A stretch of DNA of 44,605 nucleotides from Dehalococcoidia bacterium (lineage in GTDB: Bacteria > Chloroflexota > Dehalococcoidia > Lucifugimonadales > SHYF01): positions 1-44,605 of the forward strand of contig JAUSCR010000029.1 in the NCBI GenBank assembly GCA_030651175.1, in the 5' to 3' direction. Made by a program: the position numbers and the translations under genes. The notes beneath the pieces are model-generated. The model was not told the origin of the DNA and ran no database searches. It was given only the letters and a program-made list of their open reading frames with translations. Shown here piece by piece: positions 42,485 through 44,605 of the stretch. Numbering within the stretch: the first letter of the stretch is position 1; each line of letters begins with the position of its first letter.

Positions 42485-43177
42485 ATGTACAACGTTTTGC
42501 TGATAACTGCCGAAAGAGAGCCCAATGCTGCGCTCCTTCAGAGGCTGGCGGAGGAGGAAATCTCTTATACCCTTGCCTCCAACATGGAATCGCTGCCAGA
42601 CACCGGTCCTGCTAGCTCCCTGGACGCGGTCTTAGTAGACCTGGGTACGGACGATCGGAGTACGCTGCTTCCAGCGGCGGAGCGATGCCAGGGGCTTCAC
42701 CTGCCCCTACTTTGCGGCCTACCAGTTGACCGCCTGGCCAAGTACACCACCTCCTGGGGCGCTGCCGACTTCTTTGTTGTGCCTCCTGTCGCGGGCGAAG
42801 TTACCGCCAGGATCCGGCAGGCCAGACAACGCGCCAGCCCGGATGTGGTAGAGGAGGGAGAGAACATTGAGGCGGGGGACTTGCGCATCAACCTGGACAG
42901 GTACGAGGTGTTCAACCGAGGGAAAAAGGTTCTCTTGACATTCAAAGAGTACCAGCTCCTCTGCACCCTGGCCTCCAACCCTGGGCGTGTCTTTACCAGA
43001 GAGCAACTGCTGAACCAGATATGGGAGTACGACTACTTTGGGGGCACCCGTACGGTGGATGTCCACGTAAGGCGGTTGCGTAGCAAGATTGAAGACACCG
43101 GCCTGACCTACATTGAGACTGTGTGGAACGTAGGGTATCGGTTCCGTCCCCAGGATGCGCCAGCCCGGCAGGCATAG
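42485..43177 (+). CDS. Orphan OmpR/PhoB-family response regulator with an atypical receiver domain (GlnR-like)
   Basis: The C-terminal winged helix ([53 protein letters not shown]...VWNVGYRF) closely resembles, as recalled from memory, actinobacterial GlnR. The receiver lacks the N-terminal acidic pair (LLITAERE). It has V where the conserved Lys is expected (ADFFVVPP). No histidine kinase is adjacent. Confidence 0.65.
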   Translation: [230 protein letters not shown]

Positions 43178-43209
43178 CCCGGCCAGGCTCCGCACCTATT
43201 GTGATTCTT

Positions 43210-43247
43210 GTAACAAGTAGTTAACCTCTCCGCAACATGCCGGTAAC
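43210..43247 (+). promoter_or_regulatory. Four 11-bp-phased pentamer direct repeats (GTAAC / TTAAC / GCAAC / GTAAC) upstream of amt; candidate response-regulator binding array
   Basis: GTAAC 43210-43214, n6, TTAAC 43221-43225, n6, GCAAC 43232-43236, n6, GTAAC 43243-43247. Lies in the 160-nt gap between the regulator and amt. Confidence 0.45.
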
Positions 43248-43337
43248 ACTTGGCATTCAAACTAACCCCCATACCATATTCATGGACTGGGAAACGGGAG
43301 GTAGCTATGCTTACCTGTTACCAGAAGGGAGTGAGAT

Positions 43338-44605
43338 ATGATTGACACCGGCGACAATGCTTGGATTCTGACTTCGTCGGCGATGGTGCTCTTGATGACG
43401 CCTGGCCTAGCCTTTTTCTACGCTGGGCTGGCAGGACGCACCAACGTCGTGGCCACCATCATGCACAGCTTCATAATAGTGGCGCTGATAAGCGTTGTGT
43501 GGGTCTTGTGGGGATACAGCCTGGCCTTTGGGCCGGACCTCGGCCACATTATCGGCAACTTTAGCTGGTTCGGCCTGAAAGACGTGGGCGTAGACCCCAA
43601 CACCGACTACGCTGGCACCATCCCTCATCTTACATTCATGTCCTTCCAGATGATGTTCGCAATCATCACACCTGCCCTGGTCACCGGCGCGCTGGTGGGA
43701 CGGCTCAAGTTCAGGACATTCCTGGTGTTCATTGTCCTTTGGTCAACGTTGGTATATGTACCCATAGCCCACTGGGTCTGGGGAATCGGTGGCTGGCTGG
43801 GCAACTTGAACCTCATTGGGCTTGGAGTCGACCCGGCAAACATACCGGCGGGCTACGCCAACAAGGCACTGGACTACGCCGGCGGCACAGTTGTCCACAT
43901 TAGCTCTGGTGTCAGCGCCCTGGCTGCGGCCCTGGTGTTGGGGAAGCGGCGCAGCTTTGGGCAAGAGCCGGATGTGCCGCACAACATCCCCTTTGTGGTG
44001 TTGGGTGTGGGCCTTCTCTGGTTCGGTTGGTTCGGCTTCAACGCTGGCAGCGCGCTGGCCGCCAATGGCGCTGCCGCCAACGCCTTCGTCACCACCAATA
44101 CTGCCGCTGCTGCCGCTGCTCTTGCATGGATGACCATGAGCTGGTGGCGGGGGGGTGCCCCCAGCCTGGTTGGGGCCGCCTCCGGCGCCGTGGTAGGCCT
44201 GGTGGCCATTACCCCCGCCGCCGGGTGGGTATCGCCAATGTCTGCCATTCTCATCGGCATAGGAGCGGGGGTATTCTGCTACCTGGCTGCCCGGCTGCGC
44301 CAACGGGCGAAAGTGGACGATTCTCTGGATGTGTGGGCGTGTCACGGTGTCGGTGGAACATGGGGCGCTCTGGCCACGGGCCTGTTTGCAACCGCGGCCG
44401 TAGGTGGAGTGAATGGCCTTTTCTACGGGAACCCCGGCCAGTTGGTGAACCAGATTGTGGCCGTGTTAGCTAGCTGGGTCTGGGCCTTTGTGGTAACCTT
44501 CATCATTCTCAAAGTATTGGACAAGACAATGGGGCTTCGCGTTTCAGAGCAGCAAGAGGCTGTGGGGCTGGACATCAGCCAGCACGGCGAACCGGCCTAC
44601 ACACC
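43338..44605 (+). CDS. amt: Ammonium transporter (Amt family), 3' end outside the window
   Basis: Hand-translated; absent from the ORF track because no stop is reached. N-terminus MIDTGDNAWILTSSAMVLLMTPGLAFFYAGL... Near the end: ...DDSLDVWACHGVGGTWGALATGLFA...GLRVSEQQEAVGLDISQHGEPAY. GGGAGTGAG RBS. Confidence 0.9.
   Translation, partial: MIDTGDNAWILTSSAMVLLMTPGLAFFYAGLAGRTNVVATIMHSFIIVALISVVWVLWGYSLAFGPDLGHIIGNFSWFGLKDVGVDPNTDYAGTIPHLTFMSFQMMFAIITPALVTGALVGRLKFRTFLVFIVLWSTLVYVPIAHWVWGIGGWLGNLNLIGLGVDPANIPAGYANKALDYAGGTVVHISSGVSALAAALVLGKRRSFGQEPDVPHNIPFVVLGVGLLWFGWFGFNAGSALAANGAAANAFVTTNTAAAAAALAWMTMSWWRGGAPSLVGAASGAVVGLVAITPAAGWVSPMSAILIGIGAGVFCYLAARLRQRAKVDDSLDVWACHGVGGTWGALATGLFATAAVGGVNGLFYGNPGQLVNQIVAVLASWVWAFVVTFIILKVLDKTMGLRVSEQQEAVGLDISQHGEPAYT

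Follow-up and report, generated by a model that had tools for sequence, protein, structure and literature searches.

The stretch of DNA analysed here, referred to as the window, is the 44,605-nt contig JAUSCR010000029.1 of a Dehalococcoidia bacterium (assembly GCA_030651175.1). Near its end lies a gene for a 230-aa protein of the OmpR family, delimited by reading the sequence together with a listing of open reading frames (ORFs), and followed after a spacer of 160 nt (43178-43337) by amt, which encodes an ammonium transporter (Pfam Ammonium_transp PF00909, 1.5e-129; TIGR00836, 1e-140). The regulator resembles GlnR, the nitrogen regulator of actinomycetes, and the spacer carries four phased GTAAC-type boxes. 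The closest homologues (78-91% identity) come from metagenome-assembled genomes (MAGs) labelled Chloroflexota or Dehalococcoidia, with SAR202 among the more distant ones; judging from these relatives, the host is a member of the Dehalococcoidia (Chloroflexota), outside Actinomycetota.

The four boxes contain the pentamers GTAAC, TTAAC, GCAAC and GTAAC, one helical turn apart, exactly where an earlier sequence-only reading of this DNA had placed them. When the pattern KYAAC-n6-KYAAC-n6-KYAAC-n6-KYAAC is searched on both strands with up to two mismatches, these boxes are the single match in the 44.6-kb window, and none of 100 dinucleotide-preserving shuffles contains one. A two-box version of the pattern has no significance on its own, so the signal resides in the four-fold phasing. 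Related loci (given as L-numbers) were drawn from genome, assembly and metagenome collections. Rfam detects no riboswitch or leader RNA in the spacers of the window and of five of these loci. A short ORF in the window's spacer (43307-43345) is frameshifted in L147 and was therefore rejected as a conserved gene.

Twenty four-box sites are found across 15 Chloroflexota loci. Twelve of them are located before amt, six before glnA and one before a gene resembling glutamate synthase (GOGAT), the exception being the site in L001. The consensus, GTAACA-n5-kTAACA-n5-GnAAyA-n5-GTAACAC, was derived from 17 aligned sites, with which the three further sites agree, and its third box is the least conserved. 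The echo of the actinobacterial GlnR box architecture that the sequence-only reading had noticed, with four sites and n6 spacing, is kept in the consensus of the 20 sites. An equivalent site is present in L147, L148, L001, L021 and L022 (regulators 57-91% identical), and L023 keeps one at the equivalent place with boxes 3 and 4 altered. Retention extends even to loci in which the regulators share 55-63% identity and the flanking spacer DNA has diverged or gained insertions. Further sites precede glnA (L021, L022, L023, L065, L148, and L009) and, in clusters with a divergent arrangement (L002, L005, and L009), amt paralogues, and the one in L043 precedes the gene for a 554-aa protein that is glutamate-synthase-like by eye only. 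The same early reading had proposed to look for the motif at other nitrogen-assimilation genes, and in the relatives it is indeed there, before glnA, amt paralogues and the GOGAT-like gene.

Of the 18 Chloroflexota loci examined, 14 have both regulator and four-box site, and within the loci scanned the sites are confined to these nitrogen clusters. No four-box site is found in L003, L024, L025, or L026; all that L024 offers is a pair of boxes, GTAACA-n5-GTAACA, some 300 nt ahead of glnA. Scanning metagenomes for the four-box pattern, which is no unbiased regulon survey, yielded among the matches listed mostly 11-nt tandem repeats in low-GC contigs, with only L043, L065 and L081 being informative. 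The matches listed also include, in L082 (146-183), L058 and L083, four phased GTAAC-like boxes directly before a gene for a PstS-like phosphate-binding protein (in a contig of 68% GC) and before a PitA-like phosphate transporter gene; these boxes before phosphate genes may be sites of other OmpR-type regulators. As a reference for the actinobacterial pattern, and a natural counterpart to what is seen in Chloroflexota, an Actinomycetes MAG (L007) encodes a GlnR homologue (3906-4652) and carries GTAAC-n6-TTAAC-n6-GTAAC (5436-5473) some 30 nt ahead of a gene for a type I glutamine synthetase (glnA).

The position of the boxes relative to the promoter can be proposed from what follows them. The sole information peaks downstream of the boxes form a hexamer, yAnnnT (CATCAT, CAACAT, or TATCGT, for example), which in 13 of 16 sites starts 10 nt past the pentamer of box 4, and does so in L147 and L148 as well. 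If this hexamer is the -10 element, box 1 would lie at about -60, box 3 over the -35 region, and the pentamer of box 4 between -35 and -10, from about -27 to -23. According to PMC10235972, the amtB scaffold of Mycobacterium tuberculosis spans -64 to +13, its promoter-proximal b2 site is downstream of the -35 region, and the a2 site, the third from upstream, is dispensable since sigma region 4 also holds that DNA. With the start site so placed, the Chloroflexota sites would match the M. tuberculosis system in geometry as well as in the weakness of the third box, which would be the strongest argument for a GlnR-like mode of working. A consensus promoter scan called TTGGCA-16-TACCAT at 43250-43277; TACCAT is not conserved in L148, so the hexamer at the fixed offset is preferred.

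The protein encoded next to these boxes combines a GlnR-like DNA-binding domain with a degenerate receiver. The OmpR/PhoB-type winged helix is confirmed by Pfam Trans_reg_C (PF00486), which matches residues 146-220 at 1.1e-28. Its identity to the corresponding domain of GlnRs is 52-57%, against 32-44% for seven canonical regulators. The DNA contacts of GlnR from Saccharopolyspora erythraea (SaeGlnR) named in PMC10235972 are T149, K151, W177, R186, T187, H191 and R193, of which R186 and R193 read the GTAAC bases; all seven named residues are identical in the window protein, as T152, K154, W180, R189, T190, H194, and R196. At the N-terminus, Response_reg gives no Pfam match in the window protein, and the sole matching model, although below threshold, is GlnR_1st (PF21695). 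Among 40 family members, 25 match GlnR_1st and two match Response_reg at E<0.01. These proteins are publicly annotated as generic response regulators.

Aligned to the numbering of MtrA, the receiver pocket has T8/A9 in place of the acidic pair D12/D13, keeps D56 as D52, and has Leu for T83 and V99 for K105, followed by an invariant Pro. The quintet of the window protein therefore reads T,A,D,L,V, which compares with T,S,D,V,L in M. tuberculosis GlnR and D/E,D,D,T/S,K in canonical regulators, and only one of the five phospho-acceptor residues, Asp52, is kept. The Thr at the first acidic position is common to the window protein and GlnR, and the Chloroflexota family and the GlnRs share the loss of two residues as well as a Trp immediately ahead of a GADD-like motif. 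Searched exhaustively, 1.84 billion cluster representatives (50% identity) gave 71,431 OmpR-family matches, 165 of them at E<=1e-30. The relatives counted here are the 130 full-length sequences among the best 150 of those matches; 129 of the 130 have a degenerate receiver, with at most three of the five catalytic residues. The ORFs annotated with Pfam over the 42 kb upstream of the regulator in the window include no histidine kinase, nor was one found within 10 kb to either side of the regulator in six related loci (L021-L026).

Matches to solved structures and neighbour-joining trees place this protein next to GlnR. Its top matches in the PDB are 8hig (117 bits) and 8hih (114 bits), and the best full-length match other than GlnR is RegX3 with 89 bits; the alignment to 8hih covers residues 2 to 222, including the N-terminal domain. 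In PMC10235972, 8HIH is the GlnR transcription activation complex of M. tuberculosis and 8HML the DNA-binding domain of S. erythraea GlnR on DNA. The chain in 8hig, judged by alignment, is S. erythraea GlnR too. The entries 4O1H and 4O1I are further structures of actinobacterial GlnR. For the neighbour-joining trees, the family was combined with the GlnRs of M. tuberculosis and S. erythraea, with MtrA, RegX3, PrrA and BaeR, with three canonical regulators of other phyla, and with two actinomycete MAG homologues. The Chloroflexota family and GlnR separate together from the canonical regulators in 200/200 bootstraps with full-length sequences and in 199/200 with the N-terminal domain. With the 130 representatives, seven canonical regulators and one canonical-like representative split from all others in 100/100 bootstraps. 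Four of the 130 relatives are GlnRs proper and cluster tightly with GlnR, among them P0209, which is 68% identical to GlnR of M. tuberculosis.

What the sequence-only reading had said of the protein largely survives this analysis. Its close winged-helix likeness to GlnR is seen in the domain identity and in the seven contact residues, and its degenerate receiver, without acidic pair and Lys, turns out to have lost the Thr as well. The claim that no cognate kinase is nearby holds for the 42 kb and the six loci searched, and the protein does not cluster with the kinase-paired OmpR/PhoB regulators in the trees of full-length sequences and of N-terminal domains. The suggestion that GlnR-type control reaches beyond the actinobacteria stands with respect to the host, which belongs to Chloroflexota, and has to be narrowed with respect to the protein, which falls into a sister family.

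Several observations weigh against reading the locus as a GlnR system. In GlnR, Arg52 and Thr9 form "Asp-focused charge interactions" around Asp50 in place of a phosphorylation pocket (PMC10704036); the equivalent of Arg52 is Gly54 in the window protein and G, S, E, T, or A across the family, with Arg in only 10 of the 130 relatives. GlnR_1st scores 19.7 bits for the window protein, and 19.7-21.9 bits over the comparisons made, under the gathering cut-off of 27. The DNA-binding domain alone leaves the grouping with GlnR unresolved (28/200 bootstraps). Against the PDB, the N-terminal profile of the family scores about 44 bits with canonical receivers (such as AdeR, CpxR, and PmrA) and 29-30 with GlnR receivers, and in hhalign it reaches 88 with the former and 64 with the latter. 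Two related loci, L025 and L026, encode regulators of about 45% identity away from nitrogen genes, with no four-box site within 20 kb. Finally, L001 keeps an intact four-box site (6714-6753) though amt is gone and a convergent Vut_1/YhhQ-type transporter gene is in its place. In L149 (4083-4106), a convergent Vut_1/YhhQ-type gene has likewise taken the place of amt, and here the four-box site is lost; the regulators of L001 and L149 are 80-87% identical to that of the window.

The N-terminal profile was rejected as proof of specific kinship with GlnR, since GlnR was expected on top and canonical receivers scored higher. Conversely, GlnR receivers score 64 in hhalign with the Chloroflexota family and 48 with canonical receivers, a pattern of scores that agrees with a common stem from which the Chloroflexota branch is short and that of GlnR long. 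The sister grouping could also partly reflect long-branch attraction between two degenerate receivers. On these sequence comparisons, the window protein is filed as a member of a sister family of actinobacterial GlnR, and not as GlnR proper, because Arg52 is absent, the N-terminal profile scores favour canonical receivers, and GlnR_1st remains below threshold.

The regulator is likely to be a kinase-independent, GlnR-like activator which, when nitrogen is scarce, brings RNA polymerase to amt and, in its relatives, likewise to glnA and GOGAT operons. Four protomers would bind head-to-tail to the four boxes, which would span about -60 to -23 of the amt promoter, with box 3 over a poor -35 and box 4 in the spacer. 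The bound protomers would then recruit RNA polymerase, as in the mycobacterial GlnR activation complex, and amt would be turned on when nitrogen is limiting. In the relatives, the same arrangement stands before amt-glnK, glnA, and gltBD operons. The sequence relationship, the boxes with their conservation and their places ahead of nitrogen genes, and the lack of a kinase nearby are observed; we infer that the regulator binds these boxes, where transcription starts, that the effect is activation and not repression, and what kind of nitrogen signal is received. The signal would be other than classical Asp phosphorylation, and might lie in a modification of another kind or in a protein partner; GlnR of Streptomyces is modified on Ser/Thr and Lys (PMC10704036).

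The same protein and boxes could instead act as a repressor, where occupation of the -35 region and the spacer would block RNA polymerase at amt or glnA when nitrogen is plentiful. This is unlikely, even though it would also fit the overlap of boxes 3 and 4 with the core promoter (provided that the proposed -10 is right), which counts against activation, and repression of some genes by actinobacterial GlnR is reported, such as that of ald in A. mediterranei (PMC4140684). The same geometry is nevertheless the activating one in the solved M. tuberculosis GlnR-RNA polymerase complex (PMC10235972). Moreover, what stands at -35 is a degenerate box and no TTGACA-like hexamer, while the proposed -10 (CAAACT/CATCAT) departs from the consensus. 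A poor -35 and a non-consensus -10 are typical of activator-dependent promoters.

Far less probable is a conventional response regulator that depends on phosphorylation by a kinase encoded at a distance, with a likeness to GlnR that would be superficial. Asp52 is kept, the same Asp is found in 84 of the 130 relatives, and the N-terminal profile still resembles canonical receivers; GlnR, however, also retains this Asp without being phosphorylated (review PMC10704036), the other four catalytic residues are gone, nearly all of the closest full-length relatives are equally degenerate, and there is no kinase near the regulator gene in seven loci. It would be more surprising still if a different factor, such as another OmpR-type protein of the PhoP-like kind, bound the boxes, and the neighbouring regulator had another target. 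Direct repeats phased at 11 bp are common to many OmpR-family sites, and a similar four-box pattern stands among the matches listed before the pstS-like gene of the high-GC metagenome contig L082. The sequence of the boxes, however, is the GTAAC read by the recognition residues of GlnR, which are identical here, and both the co-occurrence of regulator and boxes and the restriction of the boxes to nitrogen clusters in the loci scanned argue against a separate factor.

Nitrogen-assimilation genes adjoin the regulator in 12 of 18 distinct Chloroflexota loci, the window included, and the fullest order is regulator-amt-glnB/K-glnA-glnA-gltB-gltD (L021). In L148, the closest relative with this short spacer, what comes after amt is a gene for a P-II protein, then another four-box site, then glnA. 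Eight of the 20 sites are followed, at a distance of 50-66 nt, by the start of a conserved ORF for a hydrophobic peptide of 29-31 aa, which precedes amt or glnA. Examples of the peptide are MEALLSGIAFAGLFTLWVILPIKIMKERQES or MDITTAAGFIGFVIGLAAWVILPTRVPAGE, with the motif W-[VIL]3-P-[STI]-[KR]. It has no Pfam or NCBIfam match, was not found elsewhere in the loci scanned, and is missing from the window's own spacer.

The regulator gene may have a promoter of its own, with an extended -10-like element. The corresponding upstream regions of relatives contain TGCTATACT in L024 and TATAAT in L003, and no GTAAC boxes are found near the putative promoter in the window. Together, the extended -10-like element and the absence of boxes 5' of the gene suggest that its expression is independent of its own product. 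The coordinates of these features are collected in Table 1.

Table 1. Features of the regulator-amt region in the window and small-peptide ORFs in related loci.
Feature	Locus	Position	Strand	Remarks
Possible promoter of the regulator gene, extended -10 TGGTATACT	Window	42445..42453	+	Read from the sequence, tentative; not called by the consensus scan
GlnR-like orphan OmpR-family regulator	Window	42485..43177	+	Pseudo-receiver, residues 1-~118; winged-helix DNA-binding domain, ~128-222
Box 1, GTAACA (GlnR a1 equivalent)	Window	43210..43215	+	Putative position ~-60
Box 2, TTAACC (GlnR b1 equivalent)	Window	43221..43226	+	Putative position ~-49
Box 3, GCAACA (GlnR a2 equivalent)	Window	43232..43237	+	Most degenerate box across loci; putative overlap with -35
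Box 4, GTAACAC (GlnR b2 equivalent)	Window	43243..43249	+	Putatively in the -35/-10 spacer, ~-27 to -21
Putative -10 hexamer CAAACT	Window	43258..43263	+	Fixed offset from box 4; CAACAT in L147, L148, L021
amt (ammonium transporter)	Window	43338..44605	+	ATG at 43338; 3' part beyond the window end; presumed target gene
29-31-aa peptide ORF	L022	10931-11026 and 12916-13008
29-31-aa peptide ORF	L009	4004 and 1863	-
29-31-aa peptide ORF	L005	468	-
29-31-aa peptide ORF	L148	2953
29-31-aa peptide ORF	L023	~11747
29-31-aa peptide ORF	L021	~12650

The remainder of the window consists mostly of housekeeping genes, including those for aspartyl-tRNA synthetase and ClpX, the purine genes purF, purM, and purH, and 23S rRNA. 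The 23S rRNA gene is complete (22729-25745, minus strand) and followed by a tRNA-Met gene (22463-22537, minus strand); Rfam detects neither 16S nor 5S genes in the whole window, and the rRNA genes therefore seem to be unlinked. The series of purF (34171), purM (36568), and purH (39368) is interrupted by two insertions, namely a PIN-domain toxin with a small upstream ORF (35825-36530), and a NotI-like restriction endonuclease together with an adenine methyltransferase of the D12 class (37592-39384). Three ORFs of about 185-190 aa each stand in succession at 26155-28233, some 14 kb from a gene of the PEP-mutase family (11168-12061).

The OmpR-type GlnR is treated as the nitrogen regulator of actinomycetes in PMC10704036 and PMC10235972, and the full-text literature searched contains no description of it in Chloroflexota or Dehalococcoidia. 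The kind of system is therefore known, and what appears to be new is its presence in a second phylum, together with a conserved cis-code and a tight linkage to the regulon. This suggests that GlnR-style nitrogen control is not confined to actinobacteria. A more speculative view, which can only be offered tentatively, is that GlnR-type control is an old invention of the Terrabacteria, common to Chloroflexota and Actinomycetota and no speciality of the actinobacteria, surviving in Dehalococcoidia as a compact "nitrogen island" with the regulator beside its own regulon, where the small peptide could modulate the ammonium transporter or glutamine synthetase. The locus offers a directly testable extension of a known system rather than a new principle. 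It provides a model, concrete and open to test, of how nitrogen is controlled in bacteria of groundwater and ocean that are abundant and mostly uncultured, a ready motif for predicting the nitrogen regulons of Dehalococcoidia and SAR202 from metagenomes, and a less-diverged relative with which to ask how the GlnR receiver lost phosphorylation control.

Among the known systems, the GlnR/TnrA regulators of Firmicutes, which belong to the MerR family, have only the name and a nitrogen regulon in common with the system described here, as their fold is unrelated, their DNA site is different, and their control involves binding to glutamine synthetase (PMC9249791). ChxR and HP1043, orphan atypical OmpR-type regulators with pseudo-receivers (PMC12632262), are comparable through their phosphorylation-independent activity and constitutive dimerisation. 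Their targets, however, are not nitrogen genes, and they are likened by kind and not by sequence. Canonical regulators of the RegX3, MtrA, and PhoB type share the winged helix acting on tandem direct repeats phased at 11 bp and activation through contacts to sigma region 4, but differ in their intact phospho-acceptor pocket, their cognate kinase, and their regulons, and are placed on the opposite side of the split in the tree.

The closest likeness is to actinobacterial GlnR. Both have the same domain architecture, a receiver without the acidic pair, the Thr, and the Lys but with the Asp retained, and no partner kinase nearby. The core of the recognition helix and the DNA-contact residues are identical, and in both cases four GTAAC-type sites (a/b: gTnAc/GaAAC) lie 6 nt apart, the third being the weakest, with a putative placement around and downstream of the -35 region. 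The putative targets, assigned by the position of the sites only, are also nitrogen genes, namely amt, glnA, and glutamate synthase. In contrast to GlnR, the host belongs to Chloroflexota and not to Actinomycetota, overall identity is about 39% and falls to 23-25% in the N-terminal domain, Arg52 is absent, and GlnR_1st is below threshold. The N-terminal domain of the window family is also less diverged from canonical receivers than that of GlnR. We know of no physical linkage of glnR to its target operons in Streptomyces or Mycobacterium, whereas the gene of the window family is usually linked to them, and many of these operons begin with the membrane peptide of 29-31 aa.

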